Shown in pieces: positions 16,953 through 53,359 of a stretch of DNA of 64,000 bases. The first letter of the stretch is position 1. Each line of letters begins with the position of its first letter. The stretch is from Rickettsiella endosymbiont of Miltochrista miniata. GTDB lineage: Bacteria > Pseudomonadota > Gammaproteobacteria > Diplorickettsiales > Diplorickettsiaceae. The position numbers and the translations under genes are program-made. The notes under the pieces are model-generated. The model was not told where the DNA came from, made no database searches, and saw nothing but the letters and a program-made list of their open reading frames with translations. The stretch covers positions 215,402-279,401 of the forward strand of contig NZ_OZ035017.1 in NCBI RefSeq assembly GCF_964031245.1. The letters run 5' to 3'.

Positions 16953-16979
16953 CTATTCTTTTTCTATTTAAAAAAGCCT

Positions 16980-33440: not shown

Positions 33441-34664
33441 TTGAAGGAAGTTGTTTTGGAAATTTATTTAGTTGGTGGGGCAGTGCGTGATCAATTATTG
33501 GGTTATCCGATAAAGGAACGTGATTATGTCGTCGTGGGCGCAAGTCCTGAGGAAATGTTAAAGCAAGGATTTCGCTTGATTGGCAAGGATTTTCCAGTCT
33601 TTCTTCATCCTAAAACTCACGAAGAATATGCATTAGCGCGTACAGAACGCAAAATTGGGCCTGGTTATAAAGGTTTTTCCTGCTATGCAGCGCCTGATGT
33701 GACGCTCGAGGACGATTTACAACGTAGAGATTTGACTATTAATGCCATGGCGCAAAATAACAGTGGTCATATTATCGATCCTTTTCAAGGCCAGAAAGAT
33801 ATTGATAATAAGCTATTACGACATGTCTCTCCTGCCTTTAGCGAAGATCCGGTACGTATTTTACGCGTAGCACGTTTTATGGCGAGGTTTTCGCCATTAG
33901 GTTTTCGAGTGGCTAAAGAAACCATGGAGCTAATGAAAGCTATGGTATCTATCGGCGAAGTGCAGGCGTTGGTTTCAGAACGAGTTTGGCAAGAATTTTC
34001 CAGAGCGCTCACTGAGCCTGCGCCTCAAGCTTTTATTAAAACTTTGTATGAGTGTGGCGCATTAGCAGTGTTATTTCCAGAATTGCAAGAATTATATGTA
34101 CAATATGAACGTATAGCGGATCCACGTTCTATAGGGCAACATAGCTATTTAGCTGTTTTGGAAAAAGCGGTGGCATTAACGGATGATCCACAAGTACGTT
34201 TCGCAGCAATACTTTGTGATTTAGGTAAGGGTGTTGCAAAAGAAGAAACCGAAGCGGGAATTCATAAGATACAAGCCTTATGTCAGCGCTATCGTATACC
34301 TCGTGCCTATGCTTTACTTGCCGCCACAGCGGCGGCTTATCATCTACTTTGTCACCGCGCATTAGATCTAGATGCTCAATCTTTGTATATGTTACTAGAA
34401 AAAACCGATGCATTTAGGCAGTCTTCACGCTTAGATCAGTTTTTATTGGTTTGTGAAGCAGACTTTCAAGCTTATTCTGGACTAGGCAAAATCATTTATT
34501 TGCAAAAAGATAGAGTGTTAGCGGCTTTTACTGCGGCTAAAAAAGTATCTGCCAATAAGATAAAAAAATCGGGTATTACTGGCGCAGCGTTAGGGAAAAA
34601 ACTCATTGAATATCGGATTAAAGCGATATATGAGTTTCTACAAAAAAGCTCTATCGAGCGTTAA
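33441..34664 (+). CDS. cca: CCA-adding tRNA nucleotidyltransferase (TTG start; the second in-frame TTG at 33456 may be the real start)
   Basis: EIYLVGGAVRDQLLG...DYVVVG head domain. Confidence 0.85.
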   Translation: MKEVVLEIYLVGGAVRDQLLGYPIKERDYVVVGASPEEMLKQGFRLIGKDFPVFLHPKTHEEYALARTERKIGPGYKGFSCYAAPDVTLEDDLQRRDLTINAMAQNNSGHIIDPFQGQKDIDNKLLRHVSPAFSEDPVRILRVARFMARFSPLGFRVAKETMELMKAMVSIGEVQALVSERVWQEFSRALTEPAPQAFIKTLYECGALAVLFPELQELYVQYERIADPRSIGQHSYLAVLEKAVALTDDPQVRFAAILCDLGKGVAKEETEAGIHKIQALCQRYRIPRAYALLAATAAAYHLLCHRALDLDAQSLYMLLEKTDAFRQSSRLDQFLLVCEADFQAYSGLGKIIYLQKDRVLAAFTAAKKVSANKIKKSGITGAALGKKLIEYRIKAIYEFLQKSSIER

Positions 34665-34666
34665 AT

Positions 34667-35767
34667 TCAAGTGCGAAGCGTATACTTTTGAGAGCGTAAA
34701 TAATGATCCATAATGACTAAGGCTGCCATTGCGTCAACAATAGGGACAGCTCGGGGTAGAACACAAGGATCATGTCTGCCTTCGGTAACTAACTCCAGCA
34801 TCTCGTTTTGTAAGTTAAGTGTTTGTTGTGGTTTGCTAATGCTCGAAGTCGGTTTGAATGCAACACGAAAATAAATATCTTCACCGGTAGAAATACCACC
34901 TAAGGTGCCGCCAGCATGATTAGAGGTAAATGACGGTTTGCCATTTTTAATGATCATTTGATCATTATGTTCACTACCGCACATGCCAGCTCCTCTGAAT
35001 CCTGATCCAATTTCAAATCCTTTTACGGCGTTTATGCTCAGCATTGCTTTGCCTAAATCAGCGGATAATTTATCAAACACAGGTTCACCTAGCCCTGGAG
35101 GAACGTGACGTATCACACATTTGATGACACCCCCGATGGAATCACCCTCATTTTTTACACTTTCTACTAATTGAATCATTTGTGCAGCTAAAATCGGGTC
35201 TGGACAACGAATCATATTGGCTTCAATTTGGGTTGGAGTTATCGTTTGATGATCGATTTGCGTAGATAAATGACCGACTTGCTCTACGTAGCTAATAATT
35301 TCAATATTTAATTTTTGGTTTAAGAATTTTTTTGCAATAGCTCCCGCAGCGACTCTAGCCAATGTTTCTCTAGCACTGGCACGGCCACTGCCACGAAAAT
35401 CACGTCGCCCATATTTCATCATATAAGTAAAATCAGCGTGAGACGGTCTATATACATTTTTTAATGCTTCATAATCTTCCGGTCGCATATCGGCATTATA
35501 GGCTAGCAGTAATATCGGTGTGCCAGTGGTTTTTCCTTCAAATACACCGGATAATAAATGAATGGTGTCACGTTCATTTCTGGGGCTAGTAATATGACTC
35601 TGTCCCGGTTTGCGTCGATCTAACTCTAATTGAATGTCATGCTCTGAAATTTCCAACCCTGGAGGACAGCCATCGACTATCACGCCCACAGCTCCCCCAT
35701 GCGATTCGCCACAGCTAGTTATTTTAAATAATTTGCCAAAAGAATTGCCGGCCATATTATTCCTCAA
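34667..35767 (-). CDS. aroC: Chorismate synthase
   Basis: N-terminal GESHG signature; 366 aa. Confidence 0.93.
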   Translation of the reverse strand: MRNNMAGNSFGKLFKITSCGESHGGAVGVIVDGCPPGLEISEHDIQLELDRRKPGQSHITSPRNERDTIHLLSGVFEGKTTGTPILLLAYNADMRPEDYEALKNVYRPSHADFTYMMKYGRRDFRGSGRASARETLARVAAGAIAKKFLNQKLNIEIISYVEQVGHLSTQIDHQTITPTQIEANMIRCPDPILAAQMIQLVESVKNEGDSIGGVIKCVIRHVPPGLGEPVFDKLSADLGKAMLSINAVKGFEIGSGFRGAGMCGSEHNDQMIIKNGKPSFTSNHAGGTLGGISTGEDIYFRVAFKPTSSISKPQQTLNLQNEMLELVTEGRHDPCVLPRAVPIVDAMAALVIMDHYLRSQKYTLRT

Positions 35768-36926
35768 TTGTTTTTTTTATTGCTAGGTTGACGATTTTAT
35801 CTGTAACAGGATGAACATAGTTACCATTATTAATATAGATACTGCCAATGTCATTTAATAGTGCGTAATGTACTTTCCCTAATCGAATTTTTTTATCGAT
35901 TTTTGTTGCCTGCAGGATTTCTGCTGGCTTATATTTTTGTAGATCTTTTCCATAAATACCTAATTGTGCGAACAGATTTTTTATTATTAATAAAGCTTTG
36001 CTATCTAATAAACCTAATAAATAAGAAATATTTGCCTCGACTAATATGCCATAAGCCACCGCATATCCATGTAATAAAGTGTAATTTGATATCTTTTCTA
36101 AGGCATGGCCGATGGTATGGCCAAAATTGAGAACGCTACGCTCCCCTTGTTCTTTTTCATCTCGACCTACAACAGCGGCTTTAATTTTAACTGCTTTGGT
36201 GACAATTTCATTCAAATATAGGGCACTTCCTTGGATAAGATACTTAAGATTTGATTCCGTGTAATAAAGGCCTTTTGCATCATAAGTTAAAAACATTTTA
36301 ATGGCTTCTATTAAGCCATTAATCATATTTTTTTTGGATAAAGTTTTTAATAACATAACATCGATAACAACACATAAAGGTTGATAAATAACTCCTATTA
36401 AATTTTTACCATATAGCGTATTAATACCCGTTTTTCCGCCGATACTACTATCCACTGTAGCCAACAAAGTAGTTGGAATTTGGATGTAAGGGACGCCACG
36501 TAAATAGGTTGCTGCAATGAATCCGGTCAGATCTCCTACAACACCACCACCTAGGGCAATAATTAACGTATCCCGATTACAACCATGTAACTGCATGTTA
36601 TTTTCTAACCTTTGTTTAGTTTTATAGGTTTTAAATTTTTCACCTGCTGGGAACGAAAATAATAAACTTTTGTAGCCTGCTTGCTGCAAACATTTTTGTA
36701 ATTCTAAGCCATAAAGTTTTTTCACAGTATGGTCAGTGATAATAACTATTTGTTGGAATGCTAATCTTGGTAACCAAGCAGAAAAATCATATAAATTAGC
36801 CCCAATAATAACAGGGCAGTTTATGCTTTGTTCGATAGGCATGGGCATAGAAATTTTATTTAACATGATTGTACTTCTTGGGCTAAGGTAAGTAATAGAT
36901 TTTCGGTTTGTTCCCAATTTAAACAA
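35757..36926 (-). CDS. aroB: 3-dehydroquinate synthase (N-terminus likely shorter than the ORF)
   Basis: GGGVVGDLTGF nucleotide-binding motif and metal-binding His residues. Confidence 0.85.
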   Translation of the reverse strand: MFKLGTNRKSITYLSPRSTIMLNKISMPMPIEQSINCPVIIGANLYDFSAWLPRLAFQQIVIITDHTVKKLYGLELQKCLQQAGYKSLLFSFPAGEKFKTYKTKQRLENNMQLHGCNRDTLIIALGGGVVGDLTGFIAATYLRGVPYIQIPTTLLATVDSSIGGKTGINTLYGKNLIGVIYQPLCVVIDVMLLKTLSKKNMINGLIEAIKMFLTYDAKGLYYTESNLKYLIQGSALYLNEIVTKAVKIKAAVVGRDEKEQGERSVLNFGHTIGHALEKISNYTLLHGYAVAYGILVEANISYLLGLLDSKALLIIKNLFAQLGIYGKDLQKYKPAEILQATKIDKKIRLGKVHYALLNDIGSIYINNGNYVHPVTDKIVNLAIKKTIEE

Positions 36927-37906
36927 GGATCGGTAATCGATAAGCCATTTAAGTCGATAGAAGTAGAATTACAAGCTTCAAGCTTTTGATTTCCTTCCTT
37001 TAAATAACTCTCTAGCATGAAGCCTTTCATTAAACGGCGTAATTCCGGAAACATTTTTAAGTACTGCATAATCTCAGAAATAGCAGTAAGTTGTGCTCGA
37101 TGATCTTTTTTTCCATTAACCAAGCTATTATCATGGCTAACATCAATAACCACCGCTGGGTTTTTTATTTGCTGCGCCAGCATATGTTGCTTTATAGATT
37201 CAAGATGTGCGCGCGAATAATTTGGCATTTTATTGCAACCACGCAAAACCAAATGGGCGTAGGGATTCCCAGGTGTTCGTATTTCATAGCCATGCATAGC
37301 AGCGATATGTGAATGCTGTGCAGCGACGACGCTGTTGATACTCACATCGATAGCACCATGTGTTGGATTTTTCATGCCCACAGGACAATCTGCAGCAGAT
37401 GCAAAAATTCGATGTTCATGATCTTCACTACTTCTGGCACCAATCGCAAACCATGAAACCAACTCTAAAAATCCACGGGAATTATGCGTAAATAAACATT
37501 CATCAGCGATAGGTAATCCGAGCTCCACAATCTTGACCATCATTTCGCGAACATAATGCATGCCTGCTTCAATATTAGGTTCAGCATAGGGATCAGGTTG
37601 ATTAAGCGGGCCGGTCCAACCTTTGGTGGTGCGGGGTTTTTGAATATATACACGCATAACAATTTTTAATGATTGCTTGACGCGCGCATTCACTTTTAAT
37701 AAACGTTCTGCGTATTCCAGCACCGCATCCTTGGGCCATGCTGAACAGGGGCCGATAATCATTAATAAGCGACGATCTCGACCTGCTAAAATATCCTTTA
37801 TTTCTCGCCTGTCGAGCATAATTTTTTGGTGTCCTTCGGCAGATAAAGGATATAATTGAATAATCTCTTCTACGCGAGGTAATTCTTTAAGTTGTAGATA
37901 ATTCAT
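36860..37906 (-). CDS. 3-deoxy-D-arabino-heptulosonate-7-phosphate synthase, class I (AroF/G/H type)
   Basis: 348 aa; IIGPCS motif; DAHP synthase I family. Confidence 0.85.
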   Translation of the reverse strand: MNYLQLKELPRVEEIIQLYPLSAEGHQKIMLDRREIKDILAGRDRRLLMIIGPCSAWPKDAVLEYAERLLKVNARVKQSLKIVMRVYIQKPRTTKGWTGPLNQPDPYAEPNIEAGMHYVREMMVKIVELGLPIADECLFTHNSRGFLELVSWFAIGARSSEDHEHRIFASAADCPVGMKNPTHGAIDVSINSVVAAQHSHIAAMHGYEIRTPGNPYAHLVLRGCNKMPNYSRAHLESIKQHMLAQQIKNPAVVIDVSHDNSLVNGKKDHRAQLTAISEIMQYLKMFPELRRLMKGFMLESYLKEGNQKLEACNSTSIDLNGLSITDPCLNWEQTENLLLTLAQEVQSC

Positions 37907-38736
37907 AAAAAAGTCGCTGTTTGGTCTTGTATTAATATTTTTCTAAGTTTTTTTATAATCGTCGGCGTAAGATATTGGCCGGTTAGCAATTCGATTTGTT
38001 TTAATCCTTGACCTATAAACATATCTAAACCAGAAATAATGTTTGCGCCTTGTTTTTTTGCTTGTTTTAACAGTGGAGTCATTAACGGGTTGTAGACCAT
38101 ATCAAACACAACTTGCTTTGGATTAAATATATATACTGGTAGCTGTGACGTATCTACATTTCGGTAGAATCCAAGGGGTGTCGTGTTGATGATGATATCG
38201 ATCGACAGACCATCTAGTTCATTACTGGTAACAACCTTTCCACCAAATTTTTTTGCTAAAACCGTTGCTTTTTTTGATGTTCTATTTATCCAAAAAAGTT
38301 GGGCTTGGTTTTTTTTGAGAAAATAGGCCACCCCTCGCGCCGCACCACCTGCACCAATTATCAGAACTTTTTTATTGCTGACGGCGATATGGCGTAAGGC
38401 AAAATTGATCCCATCAATATCTGTGTTGTATCCATACAATTTCCCATCACGTTGAATAATAGTATTGGTCGCTTGTAATTCGTTGACTTCATCACTGCAA
38501 TGATCGAGATAGTTAATAATTTTTTCTTTAAAAGGTGAAGTTACTGCTGTGAGTGGAATTTCTAGCGTTTTTATTACCGTTATTAATGATTTAAGCGGCA
38601 GCGAGCGCGGCTGTGCTAAGAAAATTGCATTGATCCCGAGTAATTGATAGCTAAACGTATGTAACATAGGACTTTGCGAATGTTCTAGTGGATAACCAAT
38701 CACCATATTTAATTGTGTTTTGCTGTTTATTTTCAT
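37903..38736 (-). CDS. aroE: Shikimate dehydrogenase
   Basis: GYPLEHSQSP N-terminal motif and GAGGAARG NADP-binding motif. Confidence 0.85.
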   Translation of the reverse strand: MKINSKTQLNMVIGYPLEHSQSPMLHTFSYQLLGINAIFLAQPRSLPLKSLITVIKTLEIPLTAVTSPFKEKIINYLDHCSDEVNELQATNTIIQRDGKLYGYNTDIDGINFALRHIAVSNKKVLIIGAGGAARGVAYFLKKNQAQLFWINRTSKKATVLAKKFGGKVVTSNELDGLSIDIIINTTPLGFYRNVDTSQLPVYIFNPKQVVFDMVYNPLMTPLLKQAKKQGANIISGLDMFIGQGLKQIELLTGQYLTPTIIKKLRKILIQDQTATFL

Positions 38737-39170
38737 GATTTTAAATATTCCATTAAGGTATTCACCGCTTCTCGATAACCTTGTTCTTTCTTACCTTTTA
38801 TGATTTTTATACAAGCCGGTGCAATGACGGATTGTTTTCTCCATGCTTCGCGATGCTGCGTATCAGATAAATGTACTTCCACAACTGGTAAACCAGTATC
38901 AATTAGAGCGTCATGTAAACCATAGCTATAATGTGTGAATGCCCCTGGATTAATAATGATGCCCAAGCAATTTTTGCTCTCCGCTTGCAATTTATTAACT
39001 AAATTACCTTCATGATTTGATTGATAGGAAACGATTTTAAATCCATGTTTTTTTGCTTCTTGGGTAGTGATAGCGCTAATCTCTTTGAGGGTTAAATTGC
39101 CATAATGCATTGCATCGCGTTCACCTAAAAGATTCAAATTTACTCCATGTAATAGTAATAACTTAGACAT
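38733..39170 (-). CDS. aroQ: 3-dehydroquinate dehydratase, type II
   Basis: 145 aa; LLLHGVNLNLLGERD and type II signature. Confidence 0.9.
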   Translation of the reverse strand: MSKLLLLHGVNLNLLGERDAMHYGNLTLKEISAITTQEAKKHGFKIVSYQSNHEGNLVNKLQAESKNCLGIIINPGAFTHYSYGLHDALIDTGLPVVEVHLSDTQHREAWRKQSVIAPACIKIIKGKKEQGYREAVNTLMEYLKS

Positions 39171-41010
39171 AGTGGTTTTGCTCCGAGTTTATTTGGAGAT
39201 GAACAAGTGCCTCGTTGACAGCATGATCAATAGAATGGTTGTTATTGATAGTAAAAGCTGCCAATTTTTGGTAAGTTTCACTGCGTTCATCCCATAAACG
39301 ATTAAATGATTCATAAGAATCTTCACTTGGATCAAAAAAACTAGGACGACCTTCGATCATAATGCGCTCAAACACGATGCCACGTGGTGCTACCACATGC
39401 AGTAAACGATGCGGTTTTAGCAGGTCTTGATTAAACTGACTTATAGTCGTTCCCCCGCCTAAAGAAATCACACAGGCTGGTAATTTAAGTGCTAGTTGTA
39501 ATGCTTCTGACTCTAATTGGCGATAATAGTGTTCGCCGTGTGACTGCATAATTTCGCGACAAGAAAAAGTTTCGAGATAAATTTTTTTATGTAAAATCTC
39601 AACTTCTCGATCGAGATCAATAAAGCTTTTATTAAGTGCTTTTGCTAAATGTCTACCTATCGTTGTTTTACCTACATGTTTAAATCCGATTAGAATGATC
39701 GGATTATTAATACCGGTATTTTTCAGACTTATGTTTGCTCCTATTTTTTGCATGGAGGGAACAAAATCTGGATAGGTTTTGTTAATGGCTATTGCGTCTG
39801 TTATCAATGTTGTTCCGCGTGCGATCATTCCAGCAACTGTAAGTGCCATTACCGTACGGTGATCACCAAATCCTTTTACCAAGCTACCTTTTAGATTGCT
39901 TTGGTGCACGATGATTCCGTCTGGATTTTCCTCTATTTTGGCACCCATTTGTCTCAACCCTGATGTCATGGAATGAATGCGATCGGTTTCTTTAATACGT
40001 GCTTGGATGACATTGTAAAGTTCAGTTTTACCAATTGCTTTTGTGGCAATGACGGCCAGAGTCGGTAATAGATCGGGGATATCATTGGCATCAATACGCA
40101 TCCCTCTTAACGGTTTGCCACCTTTGATTTTTATATTATTTTGATTGATCTCTATCTCTGCGCCCATCTCTTGTAAAATACTTATTAATCGTTTATCTCC
40201 TTGTCCATCATTATTGTTTAATCCTAGTATTTGCACTTCTCCTGGAATGAGCGTTGCGGCAGCAATCAGATAAGATGCCGAGGAAAAATCACCATTGATA
40301 TAGGCACGAATGGGCTTATATGCTTGCTTTCCATGGATGTGAAAAGTGTCGATATTAGCAACACGCTGGTGCGTATAATTGATCCCTAGTTCTTGCAACC
40401 ATTCGAGTGTCATATCAACATACGGACGTTCGTGTAAATCTTTTACCGAGACGACACTATTATTTTCAGCACACGGCAGCCCCATCAATAAAGCGGATAA
40501 ATATTGAGAACTAATGCCTGCTATCTCAGTAACCCCTCCTTTTAATGTACCGCTCACTAAAAGCGGCAAATGCCCCGCTGACTCAAGATACTGGATATGC
40601 ATACCTAGCTGATTTAATGCATCGACCAATGGTTTAATGGGTCTGGCCCGCATTTGTTGGTCGCAGTTAAGGAGGATAGGGTTGATATAATTTTTACGTA
40701 ATCCTAATAATGGCAGGATAAATCGAGTCGTTATACCTGAATTTCCGGTGTGGATTTCTGCGGCGGCAGAGCTGAAAGCTAGCCCTTCACTTTGTATGCT
40801 GAGCTTATGGGCGGTTAGGTGAATGTTGGCTCCTAACGCTTTACATACTTCGATAGTCGCGCGTGTGTCATCAGAGCTCAATGGATTAAGCAAAGTTGAT
40901 TCTCCTTTGGCAAGTAATGCAAATAACATGCCGCGGATAGTGTGTGATTTCGAGCTGGGTGAGAGGACGCTCCCACTTAAAGCTATGCTTGGATTTACGA
41001 TAAGAGTCAT
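39163..41010 (-). CDS. aroA: Bifunctional EPSP synthase (N-terminal, ~430 aa) fused to shikimate kinase (C-terminal, P-loop GFKHVGKTTIG)
   Basis: EPSPS motifs (LLNPLSSDDT, GNSGITTRF), then IILIGFKHVGKTTIGRHLA...DLD shikimate kinase Walker A and DxD. Confidence 0.85.
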   Translation of the reverse strand: MTLIVNPSIALSGSVLSPSSKSHTIRGMLFALLAKGESTLLNPLSSDDTRATIEVCKALGANIHLTAHKLSIQSEGLAFSSAAAEIHTGNSGITTRFILPLLGLRKNYINPILLNCDQQMRARPIKPLVDALNQLGMHIQYLESAGHLPLLVSGTLKGGVTEIAGISSQYLSALLMGLPCAENNSVVSVKDLHERPYVDMTLEWLQELGINYTHQRVANIDTFHIHGKQAYKPIRAYINGDFSSASYLIAAATLIPGEVQILGLNNNDGQGDKRLISILQEMGAEIEINQNNIKIKGGKPLRGMRIDANDIPDLLPTLAVIATKAIGKTELYNVIQARIKETDRIHSMTSGLRQMGAKIEENPDGIIVHQSNLKGSLVKGFGDHRTVMALTVAGMIARGTTLITDAIAINKTYPDFVPSMQKIGANISLKNTGINNPIILIGFKHVGKTTIGRHLAKALNKSFIDLDREVEILHKKIYLETFSCREIMQSHGEHYYRQLESEALQLALKLPACVISLGGGTTISQFNQDLLKPHRLLHVVAPRGIVFERIMIEGRPSFFDPSEDSYESFNRLWDERSETYQKLAAFTINNNHSIDHAVNEALVHLQINSEQNHYV

Positions 41011-41040
41011 TTTTCGCTACTCATTATTGACTATACTCTT

Positions 41041-41076
41041 GTAACGCTGTATCATTACAAGAGTATATCATAACGA
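41041..41076. promoter_or_regulatory. 13-bp perfect inverted repeat TATACTCTTGTAA-N10-TTACAAGAGTATA in the aroA / trpE divergent promoter region; candidate operator
   Basis: Perfect palindrome located 10 nt upstream of the trpE start and about 30 nt upstream of the aroA-aroK start on the other strand. Confidence 0.4.
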
Positions 41077-41086: not shown

Positions 41087-42520
41087 ATGATGCAAGCTTT
41101 ACCCTTAGATGAATTTCAGCAGTATGCCAACGATGCCAAGCGAGTAGCAGTTTTCAAAGAGATTCCTGCTGATCAGCTAACTCCCATCCAGATTTATTGT
41201 CGGTTGAAAAAAGCCTATGCAGCAGAAGGGGCCATGTTTGAGGATCTCCATCAAAGAGACGCCGTTCGTTACTCTTTTATATGTTTTGAACCTATTGCAA
41301 GCCTGACTAGAAATGACGTCGATGATAATCATCCATGGGCAGAGCTGCGGGATTTACAGTCACAGCTACGTTTTGCGACGCGACCCGAAGTAGCCGATTT
41401 AATTACTAGCGCAATAGGCTTTATTACCTATGATGCGGTGCGTTATTTTGAAGCAATACCTATTCATCCAGTCGTTCATACTAAATTGCCATTAATCGAA
41501 TTTAATTTTTATGCTCTGAATCTTAGTTTCAATCATGAAAAGCAAACCCTGTTAATTAGTTACTTGGTTGCAGTAGGGGCAGATCCAGAGCAAGCCTATT
41601 ATCAGGCGCAACAGAAAATAGTCACTATTATAGAACTTTTAAGCACAGCGGTTTATGAAATAAAGGTGCCGGCTACACGACAAATAACTGATTCGGTCGA
41701 AGTTGATATATCCGATGCGGATTTTATGCTTAAAGTAGAAAAAGCTAAGAATTTTATTATCCGAGGCGATGCTTTTCAGATTGTTATCTCGAGATGCTAT
41801 AAATGTAACTATTTTATTTCTCCTTTAGATATCTATACAACATTACGCCGAGTTAGTCCTGCTCCGTTTATGTTTTATTTTACAAGTGGTGCAAATGTCA
41901 TTATCGGAGCCTCGCCTGAGCGCTTGGTCAGTGTATATAACAAAAAAATTACCGTGAATCCTATTGCAGGTACACGTAAACGTAAGAAAGAGCTAAGTGA
42001 TAAGTCGATCGAAGAGGACTTACTAAATGATCCTAAGGAACGAGCGGAGCATATGATGCTGGTTGATTTAGCCAGGAATGATGTCGGTGCGGTAAGTGTT
42101 CCTGGTAGCGTGCAGTTAAAAGATTTTTTTCAAGTAAAACATTATTCTCACGTCAGTCATATTACATCGACTGTCATGGGTGAACTGCAAGAAAAGTACG
42201 ATGCTTTAGATGCCTTTACTGCTGTTTTTCCAGCCGGAACGCTTAGTGGTGCCCCAAAAATTCGTGCCATGCAAATTATTAATGAATTAGAGACTACCAG
42301 TCGAGGATTATATGGTGGAGCTATCTGTCGTCTTGATTCTTTAGGGAATTTAGATAGTTGTATCGCTATTCGAATGGCCATACTCCAAGAAGGGGTAGCG
42401 ACCATTCGAACGGGAGCGGGTATTGTCTATGATTCGAATCCTGCTGACGAAGCACAAGAAACCTATCAAAAAGCATCCGCTATGTTGGATGCCATTAGCC
42501 AAGCACATGCGGGAGAATAA
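41087..42520 (+). CDS. trpE: Anthranilate synthase component I
   Basis: 477 aa; chorismate-binding domain; LSGAPK-like motif. Confidence 0.93.
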   Translation: MMQALPLDEFQQYANDAKRVAVFKEIPADQLTPIQIYCRLKKAYAAEGAMFEDLHQRDAVRYSFICFEPIASLTRNDVDDNHPWAELRDLQSQLRFATRPEVADLITSAIGFITYDAVRYFEAIPIHPVVHTKLPLIEFNFYALNLSFNHEKQTLLISYLVAVGADPEQAYYQAQQKIVTIIELLSTAVYEIKVPATRQITDSVEVDISDADFMLKVEKAKNFIIRGDAFQIVISRCYKCNYFISPLDIYTTLRRVSPAPFMFYFTSGANVIIGASPERLVSVYNKKITVNPIAGTRKRKKELSDKSIEEDLLNDPKERAEHMMLVDLARNDVGAVSVPGSVQLKDFFQVKHYSHVSHITSTVMGELQEKYDALDAFTAVFPAGTLSGAPKIRAMQIINELETTSRGLYGGAICRLDSLGNLDSCIAIRMAILQEGVATIRTGAGIVYDSNPADEAQETYQKASAMLDAISQAHAGE

Positions 42521-42521
42521 G

Positions 42522-43133
42522 ATGTTATTAATTATAGATAACTACGATAGTTTTACTTATAACCTTTATCAAGCTGTGGCATCTTTTTATAGCGACGTCT
42601 GCGTTATTCGCAACGATAAAATTACTATCAATGATATTAAACGAATGTCACCGGCGGGAATTATTTTATCTCCGGGTCCTGGGCGACCTGAAACAGCAGG
42701 GATTTGCGTTGCTTTAATTCATGCTTTAGTAGCGGGTGAACTTTCAGCACCATTGTTAGGTGTTTGCTTGGGCCATCAAGCTATAACCATTGCTTTAGGC
42801 GGACGTGTTATTCAGTCGGAAAAAATAGTGCATGGTAAAGATGACATTATTTTTCATAAGCAAACGGGCCTATATCAAAAGCTTACTCAGCCATTTAAAG
42901 CAGGTCGTTATCATTCATTGATTAGTGAGCGCGCAACTTTACCTTCTACATTGATCATTGACGCTGAAAATGAGCGGCAAGTCATTATGGGTGTGCGACA
43001 TCATCAATTACCTATTTATGGTGTCCAGTTCCACCCCGAATCTATTTTGACACCAGAAGGACCACTTTTATTACGGGAATTTCTTGCCATCTGCAATAAA
43101 AACTCAAAAACAGGTGTAACGGATGTTGCTTAG
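42522..43133 (+). CDS. trpG: Anthranilate synthase component II (glutamine amidotransferase)
   Basis: MLLIIDNYDSFTYNL, GVCLGHQ catalytic Cys, and HPES. Confidence 0.9.
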   Translation: MLLIIDNYDSFTYNLYQAVASFYSDVCVIRNDKITINDIKRMSPAGIILSPGPGRPETAGICVALIHALVAGELSAPLLGVCLGHQAITIALGGRVIQSEKIVHGKDDIIFHKQTGLYQKLTQPFKAGRYHSLISERATLPSTLIIDAENERQVIMGVRHHQLPIYGVQFHPESILTPEGPLLLREFLAICNKNSKTGVTDVA

Positions 43134-44130
43134 ATCCAGCATAGAAAAATTGATGCGTGGTGAAGATTTGCAAAGCCATGTTTGTCAACAAGTAGTGGAT
43201 GAGATCTTATGCCCGACTATTAATCCATTACAAATTGCAGCTTTTTTAGTGTTATTACGAGCCAAAAATGAAACCGCTGATGAATTATCAGCTATTGTGA
43301 AAGTTCTGCGCAACAGAATGGTAGTGGTGCCGACCAAGCATGCCGTGCTAGATATAGTCGGAACAGGTGGCGATGCATCGAATACCATAAATATTTCTAC
43401 AGGCAGCGCGATTCTTGCTGCAAGTTGTGGGATTAAAGTCGCTAAACATGGCAATCGTTCGATATCGTCATTAACAGGTTCCGCAGATGTGCTCGAAGCC
43501 TTAGGTGTGAATATTCAATTAACTCCCGATCAAGTGAGCAAAAGTATAGCTCAAATTGGCATTGGTTTCTGTTACTCGCCGAATTTTCATCCCATGACCC
43601 AAGCACTGCGACTTTTTCGAAAAACATTAAATGTCCCTACCACGTTTAATATTTTAGGCCCTTTATTAAATCCTGCTAACGCAGCCCATATTGTTTTAGG
43701 TGTGCTTGATGAAGCATTACTCCCAATTATGGCAGATGTATTATTACAAACAGGTAGCGATCGGTCAGTGGTGGTGCATAGCATGGGCTTAGATGAAATC
43801 AGTTGTGTAGGTCCTACAAAAATTATTGAAGTCAGCAAGCAAGAAAAACATGAATATATGATTGATCCATTACAGTTTGGCTTGCAACGTTGCACGATTA
43901 CCGATTTGCGTGGCGGAGAGGCAGAAATTAATGCACGTCTGTTGTTAGATACTTTTAAGGGAAAACGTGGAGCTATTGCAAATACACTTATTTTAAATAC
44001 AGCCGTTGCTCTCTACATTTATGGATTATATCCATCAATCTCGGAAGCTTTATTACACGCAAGTGATAATTTATATAGCGGCAAAGCCTTAAGATTATTA
44101 AATGCCTGGATTGAATTTTCTCATGACTAA
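43123..44130 (+). CDS. trpD: Anthranilate phosphoribosyltransferase
   Basis: GTGGD motif and NxxGP. Confidence 0.93.
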   Translation: MLLRSSIEKLMRGEDLQSHVCQQVVDEILCPTINPLQIAAFLVLLRAKNETADELSAIVKVLRNRMVVVPTKHAVLDIVGTGGDASNTINISTGSAILAASCGIKVAKHGNRSISSLTGSADVLEALGVNIQLTPDQVSKSIAQIGIGFCYSPNFHPMTQALRLFRKTLNVPTTFNILGPLLNPANAAHIVLGVLDEALLPIMADVLLQTGSDRSVVVHSMGLDEISCVGPTKIIEVSKQEKHEYMIDPLQFGLQRCTITDLRGGEAEINARLLLDTFKGKRGAIANTLILNTAVALYIYGLYPSISEALLHASDNLYSGKALRLLNAWIEFSHD

Positions 44131-44926
44131 CAGACTTACAGCGATTCTAATGGAAAAACAGCGTGAAGTAGCCGATTTGCGCCAGCGATTGGCGAGCAAT
44201 AATAATCATGCCATCACACAAGTACTGCGCGGCGAGTTAGTGCCGAAACGTCCACAGAGCTTTAAAGCGGTGTTAAATGCTCCCGCTCTTTCTGTGATTG
44301 CAGAAATTAAACGTAAATCACCTAGTAAAGGTGAGTTGGCCGCTATTCAAGATCCCATTAGCTTAGCAGAATGTTATATTTCGGGTGGTGCTAGCGCATT
44401 ATCAATTTTAACGGATAAGAAATTTTTTGCTGGCGATATCACTGATCTGATCCAAGTGTCAAAGGCAATAGCTGATCGAAGCATTCCAATTATTCGTAAG
44501 GATTTTATTATCGATAAGATACAAATTGCAGAAGCTGCCGTTGCCGGAGCAAGTGCAGTGTTGTGTATTATCGCTGTTCTTGGAAAAAAAACTAAAATCT
44601 TACTGGAGTTTGCTCGTTCGATTAATCTCGATGTACTCGTTGAAATTCATGATCAGAATGAGCTCGCGATCGCTTTAGATTGTGGCGCAGAGATCATCGG
44701 AGTTAATAATCGTAATCTCAAGACATTCACTGTTGATACGCAGCATGCATTACATATGGTCTCTGCAATACCGGATAATATTATTAAAGTTGCAGAGTCG
44801 GGTATTACGCATCCTGCTTTGGCAAGAGAATATTATCAGGCTGGTTATAATGCCGTATTAATTGGTGAATCATTAGTCAAATCGGATGATCCTGAAAAGT
44901 TTATTAGGGAATGTTCTTATGACTAA
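44102..44926 (+). CDS. trpC: Indole-3-glycerol phosphate synthase (alternative start 44123, in the ATGACTAA stop-start overlap with trpD)
   Basis: IAEIKRKSPSKG and LVEIHD motifs. Confidence 0.9.
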   Translation: MPGLNFLMTNRLTAILMEKQREVADLRQRLASNNNHAITQVLRGELVPKRPQSFKAVLNAPALSVIAEIKRKSPSKGELAAIQDPISLAECYISGGASALSILTDKKFFAGDITDLIQVSKAIADRSIPIIRKDFIIDKIQIAEAAVAGASAVLCIIAVLGKKTKILLEFARSINLDVLVEIHDQNELAIALDCGAEIIGVNNRNLKTFTVDTQHALHMVSAIPDNIIKVAESGITHPALAREYYQAGYNAVLIGESLVKSDDPEKFIRECSYD

Positions 44927-45554
44927 TTACTTGATAAAAATTTGTGGAATTCGTAGTGCCGAAATGGCATCACTGGCGGTTATAGCGGGTGCTAACTTGA
45001 TTGGAATTATTTTTCACCCCTTATCACCGCGTTATGTTGGAATAGAACAAGCTATACGTATTTCTCAAGCAGTGAGAGCATCAGGTGCATTGCCTGTAGC
45101 CGTATTTGTTCATCATACCGCGATTGAAATGCAATGCATCTGCGAACTCACTAATATAAATATCGTTCAGTTACATGGCGTCGCATCGCGTGCATCCCAT
45201 CAATTATTACCTGGGGAATACCAACGGATCTATGTGCAAACGGTTTCAAATCAAGGTGAGTTACAAACCGATGAAGGCTTGCGTTTCCTTGATGCGGATC
45301 GGGATTTAATCTTGATTGATCATAGTCAACCTGGGCAGGGAAATAAAATTAAGCAAGCTTTTCACTATCATTTACCTTTTCGTTGGTTATTAGCAGGTGG
45401 ACTGACCGCATTTAATGTGGCAGCAGCGATTAATGATATGCAACCTAATGGCGTCGATGTATCGAGTGGTGTTGAATTAAGTAAAGGAAAGAAAGATATT
45501 TTTCTCATTAAGCAATTTATTCAATCCGTAAGAGGCAAGTTTCATGTTAGCTAA
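44919..45554 (+). CDS. trpF: Phosphoribosylanthranilate isomerase (stand-alone, not fused to trpC)
   Basis: IKICGI N-terminus; about 210 aa; same ATGACTAA overlap with the trpC stop. Confidence 0.85.
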   Translation: MTNYLIKICGIRSAEMASLAVIAGANLIGIIFHPLSPRYVGIEQAIRISQAVRASGALPVAVFVHHTAIEMQCICELTNINIVQLHGVASRASHQLLPGEYQRIYVQTVSNQGELQTDEGLRFLDADRDLILIDHSQPGQGNKIKQAFHYHLPFRWLLAGGLTAFNVAAAINDMQPNGVDVSSGVELSKGKKDIFLIKQFIQSVRGKFHVS

Positions 45555-46740
45555 AGATTTCTTAGTTGAGAATAGAGGTCGTTACGGGGAGTTTGGTGGA
45601 ATATATCTTCCGGAATTATTAATGCAACCTATCGAAGAACTTATCTTTGCTTGGGATAACGCTAAAAAAGATCTTATTTTTAAACAGGAATTAAATTTTC
45701 TTTTAAAAAATTATGCCGGAAGACCTACGCCATTAACAGAAATTCCTGCTTTTGCTGCAAAAATTAATGGACCGAGAATCTTTTTAAAACGAGAAGATTT
45801 ATTACATACGGGGGCACACAAATTGAATAATGCCTTGGGCCAATGTTTATTAGCCAAAAGGATGGGTAAAACGCGTGTCATTGCCGAAACTGGAGCGGGT
45901 CAACATGGTGTAGCGACGGCAGCAGCTTGTGCGCGACTTGAGTTGAAGTGCGTGATTTATATGGGCAGTAAAGATATGCAACGTCAGTCAAGCAATGTGT
46001 CACGCATGCAATTGATGGGTGCGACAATTGTTGCGGTCGAACAAGGCTCAGCGACTTTAAAAGAGGCAGTGAATGAAGCTTTGCGCGATTGGTCCTCATC
46101 GTTTAGCGATACGCATTATTGTTTAGGCTCAGCATTAGGACCACATCCTTATCCTGCTATGGTTGCAGAATTTCAAGCAGTTATTGGGAGTGAAAGCCAT
46201 CAACAATGTCAGCAACAAATTGGCAGCAATCCTAATATAGTTATTGCCTGCGTGGGTGGGGGTTCGAATGCAATTGGGCTATTTTCAGGATTTTTCTCCG
46301 ATGAAGAGGTACGCATGATAGGTGTAGAAGCCGGAGGACATGGTAAGCAACTTGGAGAGCATGCCGCACGATTTTATACTGCGAGTCCGGGTGTTTTACA
46401 TGGTTGTTACACTTTTATATTGCAAGATCGGCATGGACAAATTGCACCGACGAGTTCGATTTCAGCCGGTTTAGATTATCCTGCGGTTGCTCCGCAACAT
46501 GCTGAACTTTTTAAACGTCGTCGTGTCGAATATGTGGCAGCCAATGATGATGAAGCAATATATGCATTAAAATTATTAGCTAGAACAGAAGGTATTATTT
46601 GCGCGTTAGAATCCGCGCATGCTTTAGCGCATTTAATTAAAATTGCTCCTATGCTTGCTAAAGACCAGATTGTGCTAGTGAATTTATCTGGTCGTGGCGA
46701 TAAAGATTTACCACAATTAATGGATAAGTGTGTGATTTAA
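45544..46740 (+). CDS. trpB: Tryptophan synthase beta chain
   Basis: PLP-binding HTGAHKLNNALGQ and GGGSNAIG. Confidence 0.93.
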   Translation: MLAKDFLVENRGRYGEFGGIYLPELLMQPIEELIFAWDNAKKDLIFKQELNFLLKNYAGRPTPLTEIPAFAAKINGPRIFLKREDLLHTGAHKLNNALGQCLLAKRMGKTRVIAETGAGQHGVATAAACARLELKCVIYMGSKDMQRQSSNVSRMQLMGATIVAVEQGSATLKEAVNEALRDWSSSFSDTHYCLGSALGPHPYPAMVAEFQAVIGSESHQQCQQQIGSNPNIVIACVGGGSNAIGLFSGFFSDEEVRMIGVEAGGHGKQLGEHAARFYTASPGVLHGCYTFILQDRHGQIAPTSSISAGLDYPAVAPQHAELFKRRRVEYVAANDDEAIYALKLLARTEGIICALESAHALAHLIKIAPMLAKDQIVLVNLSGRGDKDLPQLMDKCVI

Positions 46741-46741
46741 G

Positions 46742-47524
46742 ATGAAAACCCTATCGCGAATACAACAATTATTTCAAAACGGTAAGGCATACACGGCCTA
46801 TTTAACTGCGGGCGATGGTGGCGTGCAATCTACACTCGATGCAGCGCTTGCTCTAATTAAGGGCGGCGTAAATATGCTAGAAATTGGCGTACCTTTTTCC
46901 GACCCTATTGCTGATGGACTTATCATTCAGCGTGCATCGCAACGATCATTGGCAAAAGGAACTTGCTTAGCAGATGTTTTATGGATAACAAAACAGATCC
47001 GCCAACAGAGTGATATTCCAATCATTTTATTCAGTTATCTTAATCCGATATTATCTGCTCTACCATCTGATTTTTTACCCGCAGCAAAAAATGCAGGTAT
47101 TGATGGTCTTTTACTGGTTGATTGTCCCTTGGAAGCATCAGATTTTATTCATCAACAATGTAATAAAAATGACATAGCGCTTATTTATGTTATTGCACCA
47201 AGTACCCCATTGACACGCATTAAGATAATCAATACCTATGCGCAGGGATTTTTATATTATGCCTGTCAGAAAGGCACTACAGGTTTGCGCAATGAATTGC
47301 CCAAGAATTTTCGAGAAAAAATAAATACGCTCAAATCAATGGTAGATTTACCTGTTATTGTTGGGTTTGGTATTTCAAATCAAGAAGCAGTATACCGTGT
47401 GTTACAGTATGCTGATGGGGTTGTTGTAGGATCGTTATTTGTTAAGGCATTGGAAGAAGGGGCGAGTCCGTCGACTTTAACGAAACTTGCACAAAATCTA
47501 TATCCGAAGCCAGTACATAATTGA
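46742..47524 (+). CDS. trpA: Tryptophan synthase alpha chain
   Basis: LEIGVPFSDPIADG signature. Confidence 0.9.
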   Translation: MKTLSRIQQLFQNGKAYTAYLTAGDGGVQSTLDAALALIKGGVNMLEIGVPFSDPIADGLIIQRASQRSLAKGTCLADVLWITKQIRQQSDIPIILFSYLNPILSALPSDFLPAAKNAGIDGLLLVDCPLEASDFIHQQCNKNDIALIYVIAPSTPLTRIKIINTYAQGFLYYACQKGTTGLRNELPKNFREKINTLKSMVDLPVIVGFGISNQEAVYRVLQYADGVVVGSLFVKALEEGASPSTLTKLAQNLYPKPVHN

Positions 47525-47581
47525 TATACAGGGTTGCTTTTGCAATAATAGAATATTAATCGATTTTTACAGGCACATTAT

Positions 47582-47857
47582 ATGAATCAAGCAGGTTGGC
47601 GCGATTTTATTAAATTGTGCTTAAAGACCGATAATGAAAAGGTATTATCTTCTTTATTCGATTTTATTTTAACCCAAGAAGAAAAAGAGAGCATAGCCTT
47701 ACGCTATTTAATTATAAAAGAATTACTTAAACAGGAAAAGACGCAGAGAGACATGGCTAAAGATCTGCAGGTAAGTATTGCTAAAATAACACGTGGATCG
47801 AATGAGCTTAAACGGACATCACCCAAACTTATTGAGTTTTTCAAAGAAAATATATAA
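47582..47857 (+). CDS. trpR: Trp repressor
   Basis: 91 aa; HTH region IAKITRGSNELK matches the TrpR IATITRGSNSLK motif; adjacent to the trp operon. Confidence 0.8.
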   Translation: MNQAGWRDFIKLCLKTDNEKVLSSLFDFILTQEEKESIALRYLIIKELLKQEKTQRDMAKDLQVSIAKITRGSNELKRTSPKLIEFFKENI

Positions 47858-48109: not shown

Positions 48110-49153
48110 ATGTTAAGTGATGAGCTGCTAAGCTATGCAAAAAAACTCGGTTTTGGCGAAATTTTTTTTAAGATAGATCAGATTAATCAACTTTGTGCCA
48201 TTGTAGCGATACATAGCACACGCTTAGGTCCTGCCTTAGGCGGCTGTCGTTTTATCGAGTATACATCCATAGATTTTGCTATTCATGATGCCTTACGATT
48301 AGCTCAGGGGATGAGTTACAAAGCAGCATTAGCCAATTTACCTTTGGGTGGAGGTAAAACTGTGTTAATGCGCCCTAAAGAATTGGAAGATCGTAGTGCT
48401 TATTTTCGCGCATTGGGTCGTTTTGTGAATGAGTTAAAGGGACGTTATATTATTGCGATGGATAGTGGCGTGGTGATTGAAGATATGGATAGCATTGCAC
48501 TCGAAACGCCCTATGTCGTAACTACTTCTAAGCATAAAGGGAATCCTGCACCTTATACCGCGCTAAGTGTGTTATGTGGAATTGAAGCAGCGGTTAAATT
48601 TAAACTTCAGCTTGATCATTTAGAAGGCGTGCGTGTTGCCATTCAAGGTATGGGACATGTGGGCTTTGCTTTAGCCAATGCATTGCAAAAAAAAGGTGCT
48701 CGTTTAACAGTTTGCGATAATAATAGTGAACTGATGCAACGTTATGCAAAAGATTTACAGGCCAAAATTGTGAAACCTGAGGAGATTTATGCAGTTGAAT
48801 GTGATGTTTTTTCGCCTTGTGCTTTAGGGGCGATTCTGAATGATGAATCTATTTCTCAACTCAACGCAGTGATTGTAGCAGGTTCAGCTAATAATCAATT
48901 AGCTGAACCACGACATGCAGAGGTACTACATCAAAAAGAGATTTTATATGCACCGGATTATGTTATTAATGCGGGGGGTTTGATATACGCTTATGCGGAA
49001 TATCAAAATCGCTTGAATCGGGAACATGTGGTGCAACACATTCAAACAATTTATAGTACACTCTTAGAAATATTTAAGTGTGCGCATGAGGAAAATAAAC
49101 CCCCCAGTATGGTGGCTGATAGCTTGGCTGAGTCACGATTAAATAGTATTTAA
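48110..49153 (+). CDS. Leucine (Glu/Leu/Phe/Val family) dehydrogenase
   Basis: GGCR motif (LGPALGGCRF), LGGGKTVL, and GxGxVG NAD-binding motif. Confidence 0.8.
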   Translation: MLSDELLSYAKKLGFGEIFFKIDQINQLCAIVAIHSTRLGPALGGCRFIEYTSIDFAIHDALRLAQGMSYKAALANLPLGGGKTVLMRPKELEDRSAYFRALGRFVNELKGRYIIAMDSGVVIEDMDSIALETPYVVTTSKHKGNPAPYTALSVLCGIEAAVKFKLQLDHLEGVRVAIQGMGHVGFALANALQKKGARLTVCDNNSELMQRYAKDLQAKIVKPEEIYAVECDVFSPCALGAILNDESISQLNAVIVAGSANNQLAEPRHAEVLHQKEILYAPDYVINAGGLIYAYAEYQNRLNREHVVQHIQTIYSTLLEIFKCAHEENKPPSMVADSLAESRLNSI

Positions 49154-49197
49154 AAAAAATATTTCGATCGGCTAGTACTTTTTAAAAGAGGTTAAAT

Positions 49198-50289
49198 ATG
49201 AGCGAGGTTGCGAGATTCTCTATCGAGTATACTCGTTTTCTGGATCCTAAGGGCGAAATTCAACAAGATTTGCCAGCATTTACGCAAAATGTTCACGAAT
49301 TATTAAAACTATATCAGCAAATGATGTGCACGCGTCTTTTCGATTACAAAGCGGTGGCCTTGCAAAGAACAGGTATGCTCAATACCTATGCTTCGACACT
49401 CGGACAAGAAGCCATTTCCGTTGGCATAGGTGCGAGCATGCAAAGAGAAGATGTCTTATGTCCTTTTTACCGTGATTATGCTGCGCAACTGATGCGTGGT
49501 GTAAAAATGAGTGAGATTCTTAGTTATTGGAAAGGGAATGAATGGGGCAATCATTTTAGTGAATGTCCTTTAGATTTTCCTATCTGCGTGCCGATAGCCA
49601 CTCAGCTTTTGCATGCCGCAGGTGTTGCGACCGCTTTTAAACTTCGCAAACAAGCAAGAGTGGTTGTAGCAACCTGCGGAGATGGCGCCACTTCTGAAGG
49701 TGATTTCTATGAAGCCTTAAATATCGCGGGTGTTTGGAAATTACCTATTGTATTTGTCATTGATAATAATCAATGGGCAATTTCTGTGCCGCGTAAACAC
49801 CAATCTCATGCTCAAACTTTAGCGCAAAAATCTATTGCTGCTGGAATTCATGGTGAACAGGTGGATGGAAATGATGTTATTGCCACGAAATTTGTGATGG
49901 ATAAGGCAATTGCTAAAGCACGTGATGGACATGGTCCGAGTCTCATTGAAGCTTTAAGCTATCGATTATGTGACCATACTACTGCCGATGATGCGAGCCG
50001 TTATCGTCGTGAAGAAGAATTACAGCAAGCATGGCAAGAAGAACCTTTAAGGCGTTTAAAAAATTATTTAATTAATCAGAAAAGCTGGTCGGATGTTGAA
50101 GAGGAAAGTTTTAAAAAGGAATGTGAAAAAAAAATCGAAGTCGCTGTAACTGAATATCTTTCTTTAGTTAAACCTGCGGTGACTGATATATTTGATTATC
50201 ATTTTGCAGAATTGCCGCATGATTTAATCGAGCAACGTATTGAAGCTGAAGCATTGTTTATATTAAGCAAGGATCTTGTCAATGTCTGA
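49198..50289 (+). CDS. bkdA1: Branched-chain 2-oxoacid dehydrogenase E1 alpha subunit (TPP-dependent)
   Basis: TPP-binding GDG...N motif (TCGDGATSEGDFYEALN). Confidence 0.88.
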   Translation: MSEVARFSIEYTRFLDPKGEIQQDLPAFTQNVHELLKLYQQMMCTRLFDYKAVALQRTGMLNTYASTLGQEAISVGIGASMQREDVLCPFYRDYAAQLMRGVKMSEILSYWKGNEWGNHFSECPLDFPICVPIATQLLHAAGVATAFKLRKQARVVVATCGDGATSEGDFYEALNIAGVWKLPIVFVIDNNQWAISVPRKHQSHAQTLAQKSIAAGIHGEQVDGNDVIATKFVMDKAIAKARDGHGPSLIEALSYRLCDHTTADDASRYRREEELQQAWQEEPLRRLKNYLINQKSWSDVEEESFKKECEKKIEVAVTEYLSLVKPAVTDIFDYHFAELPHDLIEQRIEAEALFILSKDLVNV

Positions 50290-51265
50290 AATAACATTGA
50301 TAGAAGCGATTACACAAGCATTGGCCTACGAAATGGCAATTGATAAAGAAGTTGTTTTATTAGGCGAAGATATTGGTATTAACGGCGGTGTATTCCGAGC
50401 AACCACTGAATTATTCAAAAAATTTGGTGCCGATCGTGTTTTGGATACACCCTTAGCCGAGTCTATGATTGCCGGCCTTACGATTGGTATGGCAACACAA
50501 GGCTTAAAACCGGTCGCTGAATTTCAATTTATGGGATTTAGTTACCCGGCATTAGATCAAATTATCAATCATGCGGCGCGCTTTCGTAATCGTACTCGAG
50601 GACGTTTACATTGCCCTTTAGTTTTTCGTATGCCGTATGGTGCGGGGATCCATGCACCTGAGCACCATTCTGAAAGTACCGAAGCCCTTTTCGCGCATAT
50701 TCCAGGTTTACGTGTGGTGATTCCTTCATCACCGGCACGCGCTTATGGTTTATTGCTGGCCTCGATCCGTAATCCTGATCCGGTTATTTTTTTGGAACCC
50801 ACACGGCTGTATCGTTTAAACAAACAAAAAGTAGCCGATACCGGCGAAGCTTTACCCTTAGATAAAAGTTTTATTTTAAGAGAAGGGAACGATATTACTT
50901 TGATTAGCTGGGGTTCGATGTTGCAGGAAACTTTATTAGCTGCAGATAAGTTATCACAAGAAAAAGGTTTATATGCTGAAGTTATTGACGTTGCTACGAT
51001 AAAGCCTTTAGATATTAATACGCTTTTAACCTCCGTAGAAAAAACTGGGCGCTGCATCATTATCCATGAAGCAGCCCGTTTTTGTGGTGTTGGTGCAGAA
51101 ATTGCAGCTCAATTGAGTGAAAAAGCATTTCTTTTTTTACAGGCACCCCTACAGCGAGTTACCGGTTATGACGTAACGGTTCCCTATGCGCAATTAGAAA
51201 AACAATATTTACCCAGTGTCACCAGAATTTACAATGTGATTGAGCAAACATTGGAGTTTACATGA
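50276..51265 (+). CDS. bkdA2: Branched-chain 2-oxoacid dehydrogenase E1 beta subunit
   Basis: Transketolase-like pyrimidine-binding and C-terminal domains; overlaps E1 alpha by 14 nt. Confidence 0.9.
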   Translation: MSMSEITLIEAITQALAYEMAIDKEVVLLGEDIGINGGVFRATTELFKKFGADRVLDTPLAESMIAGLTIGMATQGLKPVAEFQFMGFSYPALDQIINHAARFRNRTRGRLHCPLVFRMPYGAGIHAPEHHSESTEALFAHIPGLRVVIPSSPARAYGLLLASIRNPDPVIFLEPTRLYRLNKQKVADTGEALPLDKSFILREGNDITLISWGSMLQETLLAADKLSQEKGLYAEVIDVATIKPLDINTLLTSVEKTGRCIIIHEAARFCGVGAEIAAQLSEKAFLFLQAPLQRVTGYDVTVPYAQLEKQYLPSVTRIYNVIEQTLEFT

Positions 51266-53253: not shown

Positions 53254-53256
53254 TCC

Positions 53257-53359
53257 GTCATGGCGAGGCCGAAACTTTAGTGAGGCCGTGGCCATCCAGA
53301 AAAAATTAAGCGTTTCACTGGATTGCCACGCACCTAGGGTGCTCGCAATGACGAAAAAT
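53257..53359. repeat. Repeat family B copy 2
   Basis: About 85% identical to 16980-17080. Located between the convergent rsmA and csbD genes. The internal hairpin has compensatory substitutions relative to copy 1. Confidence 0.65.

Follow-up and report, generated by a model that had tools for sequence, protein, structure and literature searches.

The palindrome in the 76-nt gap between the divergent aro and trp operons is probably this lineage's version of a conserved 36-bp operator bound by TrpR, the repressor encoded at the end of the trp operon; from sequence comparison, we put the probability of this reading at about 0.8. The assignment to TrpR is based on the geometry of the site, the protein itself, the co-occurrence of motif and repressor, and the sites found at trpR. 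In this role the site would most likely be a switch of an ordinary kind, in a bacterial lineage that has not been studied before. Positions are those of the window, i.e., the whole stretch of 64,000 nucleotides that was analyzed, and the loci of relatives are designated by L and a number.

The palindrome and its place in the aro-trp gap

Gene profile matches confirmed the 76-nt divergent gap between the minus-strand genes aroA-aroK to aroC and trpEGDCFBA, and trpR was found, as the preliminary description had stated, at the end of the trp operon. The features of the locus are the following:

34667-41010, minus strand: aro operon with aroA-aroK, aroQ, aroE, the DAHP synthase gene, aroB and aroC (gene profiles)
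39163-41010, minus strand: aroA-aroK fusion, first gene of the divergent aro operon
41027-41032, plus strand: -35 hexamer TTGACT of the trpE promoter (TTGAC in 11 of 14 lineages, TTGAT in 2)
41032-41067, no strand: 36-bp palindromic block, positions 1-36 (position 1 is 41032), unique in the window and gap-free in 14 lineages
41032-41044 and 41055-41067: perfect 13-bp arms, with the 10-nt spacer CGCTGTATCA at 41045-41054
41040-41059, no strand: core 20-bp dyad TGTAACGCTG/TATCATTACA (positions 9-28), proposed site of the central TrpR dimer; clade consensus TGTAATGnTA/TAnCATTACA
41050-41055, plus strand: -10 hexamer TATCAT of the trpE promoter, after a 17-nt spacer, inside the right half of the core dyad
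41087-47524, plus strand: trpEGDCFBA, the proposed regulated operon (gene profiles), with trpE from 41087
47582-47857, plus strand: trpR, last gene of the trp operon, 91 aa, the proposed cognate repressor (TIGR01321, 92.7 bits with a cutoff of 67.25; PF01371)

The DAHP synthase of the aro operon resembles the AroH model more closely than the AroG model. Directly 3' of trpR, at 48110-52428, lie the genes of an ELFV-family dehydrogenase and then of E1-alpha, E1-beta and E2 of a 2-oxoacid dehydrogenase complex. The best match of the dehydrogenase is the tryptophan dehydrogenase ScyB model (353 bits, under the cutoff of 600), and the dehydrogenase and E1/E2 genes beside the trp operon, conserved in L001-L005, possibly form an amino-acid catabolic operon.

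The palindrome TATACTCTTGTAA-N10-TTACAAGAGTATA is present in the window as described, but 9 nt further to the left than had been noted, at 41032-41067 instead of 41041-41076. No other perfect inverted repeat of the window combines arms of 13 bp or more with a spacer no longer than 30 nt. Since perfect inverted repeats with arms of 13 bp or more also turn up in 11 of 150 simulated 64-kb sequences (~7%; first-order Markov, same dinucleotide make-up), the significance of the palindrome derives from its position and conservation and not from its symmetry, which by itself is only weakly above chance.

The element TTGACT-17-TATCAT at 41027-41055 is a near-consensus sigma-70 promoter for trpE (10 of 12 matches), with a start predicted near 41062, within the right arm of the palindrome. 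The left arm fills the spacer of this promoter and has the final base of the -35 hexamer as its first base; the right arm begins with the final base of the -10 hexamer and extends to about +1. The earlier suggestion that the palindrome is placed like an operator therefore holds, since spacer, -10 hexamer and start region of a strong promoter all overlap with it. Between this promoter and trpE no leader peptide, terminator-like site or Rfam RNA was found, and the predicted leader measures ~25 nt; a transcription attenuator or riboswitch was rejected on these grounds, and a repressor is accordingly the expected means of control.

A candidate promoter for the aro operon was located on the opposite strand:

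41067-41072, minus strand: candidate aro -10 hexamer TATGAT, weak, abutting the right arm
41090-41095, minus strand: candidate aro -35 hexamer TTGCAT, inside trpE codons 2-3

On the minus strand, TTGnnT-17-TATnnT is the one candidate promoter whose position is conserved; it is present in 9 of 14 lineages with 8-9 of 12 matches and absent from a stricter scan. Its start would lie near 41060-41062, inside the proposed array of TrpR sites, so that bound TrpR would block the aro promoter. From the 76-nt gap and this candidate promoter, the aro operon is probably co-regulated with trp. In L037, with a gap of 250 nt, a strong aro promoter stands back-to-back with the trpE promoter and clear of the operator core, a layout that fits the idea that the overlap of aro promoter and operator matters. 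TATAGT at 41030-41035 was considered as another aro -10 hexamer but discarded for want of an acceptable -35 hexamer at a distance of 16-18 bp upstream.

Conservation of the block and distribution of the motif

The loci of relatives were obtained by a protein search with AroA-AroK, followed by retrieval of the encoding contigs, and by a metagenome scan with the TrpE N-terminus; a scan of genome contigs with AroA-AroK gave two true relatives only. The resulting comparison set comprises 14 independent lineages with AroA-AroK identities from 97% down to 54%, all of them uncultured Gammaproteobacteria, and the positions of L022 and L027 in the alignment were anchored by hand. The closest public contig, L001/L009 (JBHGAL010000009.1, 97% AroA-AroK identity), was deposited as 'Wolbachia endosymbiont of Folsomia candida MAG-FC1' (springtail), a label that is probably due to mis-binning because its gene content and relatives are gammaproteobacterial. 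The more distant relative L037 carries a trpF-trpB fusion of 583 aa (regions concerned, 2312-4063 and 14145-14980), and its aro operon is extended by pheA and a chorismate mutase gene.

All 36 positions of the block align without gaps in 14/14 lineages, among which AroA-AroK identity drops as low as 54-62% and synonymous sites are near saturation. Representative promoter alignments, with a slash at the center of the core, are:

Window: TTGAC TATACTCT TGTAACGCTG/TATCATTACA AGAGTATA
L006: TTGAC CATACTGA TGTAATGCTA/TATCATTACA TCAGTATA
L019: TTGAC GATACCTA TGTAATGGTA/TAGCATTACA GAAGTACA
L008: TTGAC GTCATAGA TGTAATGGTA/TAGCATTACA AAGGTACA
L025: TTGAC GAAACTCG TGTAATGCTA/TACCATTACA CGAGTACG
L028: TTGAC TATAATCA TGTAATGGTA/TAACATTACA TCGCTACA

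Over the 14 lineages, information content is high in the -35 hexamer, TAC (positions 3-5), TGTAATG (9-15), TRTA (17-20), CATTACA (22-28) and AGTACA (31-36), and low at positions 1, 2, 7, 8, 16, 21, 29 and 30. The -35 hexamer of L037 is TTGACA and lies one base more upstream. The perfect 13-bp arms of the window are a lineage-specific extreme. Identity of the core to that of the window amounts to 0.75-0.95, as against 0.43-0.66 for trpE third codon positions over the first 125 codons (7 of 11 correctly framed; L018, L025, L037 and L039 were out of frame and left out). Part of the conservation of the block is owed to the -35 and -10 hexamers and not to an operator; because core identity exceeds third-codon identity, however, the block is under selection, much of it outside the hexamers.

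The core lies 27 nt from the trpE ATG in 10 of the 14 lineages and 26-32 nt from it in all. This distance holds even with a different neighbor, namely a DAHP synthase gene alone in L021 and L023 or a 250-nt gap in L037, and the site is thus assigned to the trpE promoter.

A weight matrix built from the cores of the 14 lineages gave 28.1 bits for the core at 41040, compared with 7.2 bits for the next site in the window and a shuffle maximum of 15.7. The exact motif TGTAA-N10-TTACA occurs once in the window, as the core dyad, and neither the exact search nor the weight matrix found a second exact or significant operator site in the 64 kb. The trpE promoters of all 17 clade loci score 22.7-31.8 bits, while control loci without a clade trpR (n = 14) reach at most 12.5 bits; the controls include L038, which has a tyrA-linked aro operon and neither trp nor trpR, and L030, which has a trp operon without trpR. 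In L007 a 22.8-bit copy of the motif lies at 1029-1048, within the coding region of trpA.

The gene trpR is located 3' of trpA in all relatives whose contig extends that far, except L039 (ERZ28563591 scaffold_148), where the full operator and the divergent aro/trp layout are kept and an asparagine synthase gene converges on trpA in the place of trpR. In L008, a 1.78-Mb relative, a gene for a Y1 transposase (IS200/REP-associated type) with a DnaA C-terminal domain adjoins trpR at 1-872.

The motif is also found in front of trpR itself. In L019 a site of 22.5 bits lies 23 nt upstream of trpR, and in the distant L029, where the order is trpR-trpEGDCFBA and TrpR is 46% identical, a site of 23.8 bits (TGTACTGTTGTAACATTACA) precedes trpR. 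The corresponding gap of the window contains two features:

47521-47549, plus strand: internal promoter TTGATA-17-AATAAT in the trpA-trpR gap (10 of 12 matches, with TG in front of the -10 hexamer) and conserved among relatives
47541-47560, no strand: decayed operator-like sequence TGCAATAATAGAATATTAAT over the internal promoter (-5.4 bits, rank 28 of 63981, not significant alone)

The sequence TGCAATAATAGAATATTAAT is positionally orthologous to the strong site of L019; scores in the same gap are 22.5 bits in L019, 12.7 in L007, 11.8 in L001 and 9.4 in L008.

Alternative readings of the block

That the block is merely a strong promoter with coincidental symmetry would agree with the frequency of perfect 13-bp inverted repeats in simulated windows (~7%) and with the part of the conservation that the hexamers explain. 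However, spacer positions 9-15 and post-start positions 31-36 are conserved like the hexamers and form a dyad, and the same dyad recurs at a second promoter, the one before trpR in L019, so that a bare promoter is hardly tenable. Selection for a base-paired structure, either a cruciform in the DNA or a hairpin that the aro mRNA would carry at its 5' end and that would act on its stability or translation, is very unlikely. As DNA, the strand has a favorable fold (-10.3 kcal/mol, z = -5.2), an aro transcript from near 41062 would start with a 10-bp hairpin (-12.8 kcal/mol, z = -3.7), and three lineages have fully symmetric yet different triplets beside the core (TCT, TGA, TCG). Despite this good folding, the hairpin was rejected by the covariation test, in which complementarity at variable pairs was 49 observed versus 44.9 expected in shuffled columns (P = 0.16). 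In addition, pair 16/21 is complementary in no lineage (n = 14), individual lineages have only between 9 and 16 symmetric positions out of 18 (15 in the window), the predicted trpE start is downstream of the left arm, and there is no Rfam match. Since the variable positions do not covary, the set of half-sites and not a hairpin is the selected feature; the symmetric but different triplets could be explained by palindrome-templated mutation.

The arms of the palindrome had also been compared to the ends of a dispersed repeat, family A, a mobile element of ~125 nt (TATACTCACAGCAATTGG ... AAGTGCGAAGAGTATA) with the conserved ends CTCACAGCAATTGG ... AAGTGCGAAGAG. Its copies are:

8166-8293; 13206-13333; 22774-22892, minus strand: three copies in the window
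34663-34686: fragment in the window
L005, 11080-11203 and 1386-1514: one copy at the aroE/DAHP-synthase junction, one between trpA and trpR
L003, 1030-1156: copy after trpR

At the overlapping aroE/DAHP-synthase junction of L005, the aroE frame continues into the element and reaches 323 aa in place of 277 aa. The window also has another dispersed repeat family at 16970-17054 and 53247-53331, which is GC-rich, 85 nt long and 88% identical (GTCATGGCGAGGCCGAAAC...). Other repetitive stretches are 61482-63972, with several tandem ORFs of ~160 aa, of which three or more are paralogs that resemble each other at their 5' ends, and an intergenic segment repeated at 63180-63256 and 63895-63971, as well as 3023-3681, with 99-nt tandem repeats inside a 652-aa ORF (2522-4480, minus strand).

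The idea that the palindrome is a derivative of family A reduced to its terminal repeats, an excision footprint, or a site shared with its transposase is scarcely credible. The element is mobile in the clade, with insertions in the trp-aro regions of relatives, and the likeness to the arms is in part real: the 9-mer TATACTCTT, which makes up 9 of the 13 arm bases and is found nowhere else in the window, is the reverse complement of the 3' end ...AAGAGTATA. The nominal probability of this match is small, but it was noticed post hoc. The similarity ends after these 9 nt, and at the 5' end of the element only TATACTC (7 nt) matches the arm, whose inner GTAA is not shared. A blastn search (word size 7) gave no family-A match at 41032-41067, and among the relatives there is no family-A insertion at the operator site and no presence/absence or length polymorphism there. 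The block is instead orthologous and gap-free at a constant distance from trpE, also in relatives without the 9-mer whose outer arms differ (GATACCTA, GTCATAGA, CTTATTTT and others), the gap measures 76 nt in 6/6 loci with AroA-AroK identities down to 70%, and the outer arm conforms to the TAC/GTA half-site pattern conserved throughout the clade. In L005 the end of the element is still GAAGAGTATA, whereas the arms are GTTACTTA and AAAGTATA; end and arms therefore do not change together. Thus the palindrome shares its terminal 9-mer with these miniature inverted-repeat elements and differs from them in internal sequence, orthologous position and lack of insertion polymorphism, and descent from family A is unsupported.

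It is improbable, though less so than the foregoing readings, that the operator belongs to a different regulator, for example a TyrR-like protein or another one of the aromatic pathway that is encoded elsewhere and binds the TGTAA/TTACA dyad. The TyrR box, found before aromatic amino-acid genes, is TGTAAA-N6-TTTACA and thus has similar arms; the E. coli TrpR operators score negative with the clade motif, and L039 has the site with no trpR adjacent. However, the spacing is N10 and not N6 in 14/14 lineages, for which reason the TyrR box was rejected. Moreover, there is no tyrR at the locus, a comparison of the relatives' aro-trp loci found no conserved regulator gene other than trpR, and the motif tracks trpR: it recurs directly upstream of this gene in L019 and L029 and is absent from the tyrA-linked aro operon of L038.

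TrpR as the proposed binding protein

Several findings speak against TrpR and need to be weighed here. The half-site is unlike that of every characterized TrpR operator, with the E. coli trp and trpR operators scoring -10.3 and -13.9 bits with the clade matrix, and L039 retains the operator in spite of its missing trpR. The lack of a second significant site in the 64 kb and the decay of the site before trpR also weigh against it. In the preliminary description, the lack of a CTAG core had been taken as a hint of a different regulator. This argument is weakened by the N10 spacing, which is that of the E. coli operator, by the E. coli trpR operator, which is itself CTAG-free, and by differences in the recognition helix. 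Aligned to E. coli TrpR structures, the clade protein retains the helix-turn-helix; it shares Gln68, Arg69, Ile79, Ala80, Thr83, Arg84, Gly85, Ser86 and Asn87 as well as Thr44 and Arg54 of the co-repressor pocket with the E. coli protein, and it differs by Thr81->Lys, Ser88->Glu and Lys72->Ala. The recognition helix VSIAKITRGSNELK is invariant in 26/26 clade members. On these sequences, a half-site unlike that of E. coli can be explained by the changed helix (Thr81->Lys, Ser88->Glu).

The E. coli trp promoter (MG1655) has the form TTGACA-17-TTAACT, with the operator CGAACTAGTT/AACTAGTACG over the -10 hexamer; the overlap with the -10 hexamer of a promoter with a 17-nt spacer is thus common to both systems. 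So is the spacing, since in CGAAC-N10-GTACG the half-sites start 19 bp apart, just as in TGTAA-N10-TTACA. The half-sites themselves differ (CGAACTAG in E. coli, TGTAATG here, with a cross-score of -10.3 bits), and so does the organization, in that here no leader peptide or attenuator was found, trpR is last in the operon and a shikimate operon diverges from the same 76-nt gap. The autoregulatory operator of E. coli trpR (CGTACTCTTTAGCGAGTACA), likewise without CTAG, has TACTCTT in common with the arm, and its half-site CGTACTCT matches the outer half-site of the window, TATACTCT, at 6 of 8 bases including TACTCT. It is, however, a single site at a separate monocistronic gene, whereas autoregulation of trpR here would proceed via the operon promoter and the decayed internal site. 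In Chlamydia trachomatis trpRBA, trpR is co-transcribed with the trp genes and controls the main promoter by tryptophan (PMC7755916, PMC6504234). There trpR comes first, only trpBA follow, and an additional iron-dependent YtgR operator and attenuation are present; in the locus described here trpR comes last. Literature searches on Coxiella, Legionella and Chlamydia yielded no TrpR operator sequence for the clade analyzed here. The proposed switch at trpE is not a new kind of system.

E. coli TrpR covers ~20 bp per dimer, and tandem dimers with 8-bp phasing of the half-sites are documented (PMC8745587). At the locus analyzed here, one TrpR dimer would bind to the 20-bp core dyad (positions 9-28). 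GTAC-type half-sites are found 8 bp outside the core on both sides (positions 1-8 and 29-36), and together with the central TRTA they may form two flanking 20-bp sites (positions 1-20 and 17-36), so that up to three dimers could be bound in tandem as described for E. coli TrpR. The inner half-sites GTAAT are not of the E. coli type (GNACT / CTAG), while the outer half-sites ATACT/GTACT fit GNACT. In the +8 and +16 registers, which take ranks 6 and 7 within the window, the scores are only 0.9 and -0.4 bits, and the left flanking site is poor in the window, where positions 16-20 read CTGTA.

Such an array would extend over the trpE promoter from its spacer through the -10 hexamer to the start site and would also span the start region of the candidate divergent aro promoter. 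As a result of this coverage, tryptophan-bound TrpR would be expected to exclude RNA polymerase from trpEGDCFBA-trpR, which implies autoregulation, and probably from the shikimate-pathway operon too. A more far-reaching account is conceivable, which we consider tentative and somewhat doubtful: a re-tuned helix (Lys81, Glu88) would read TGTAAT half-sites, up to three phased dimers would occupy the 36-bp array at overlapping divergent promoters, the 76-nt switch would place the trp operon, trpR and all seven steps of the shikimate pathway under the control of tryptophan alone, and the symmetry of the arms would be kept by palindrome-templated mutation.

DNA recognition by TrpR has long been debated and relies largely on indirect and water-mediated readout (PMC8163980). 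A natural change of the helix (Thr81->Lys, Ser88->Glu) that is paired with a changed half-site may be useful for this debate. The idea of a mobile-element relic is removed as a false lead, and for a TrpR clade without a cultured or studied member the alignment provides a testable operator consensus, TGTAATGnTA/TAnCATTACA plus GTAC half-sites 8 bp outside it. Taken together, the arrangement suggests that the whole common aromatic pathway may be subordinate to tryptophan supply in these bacteria.
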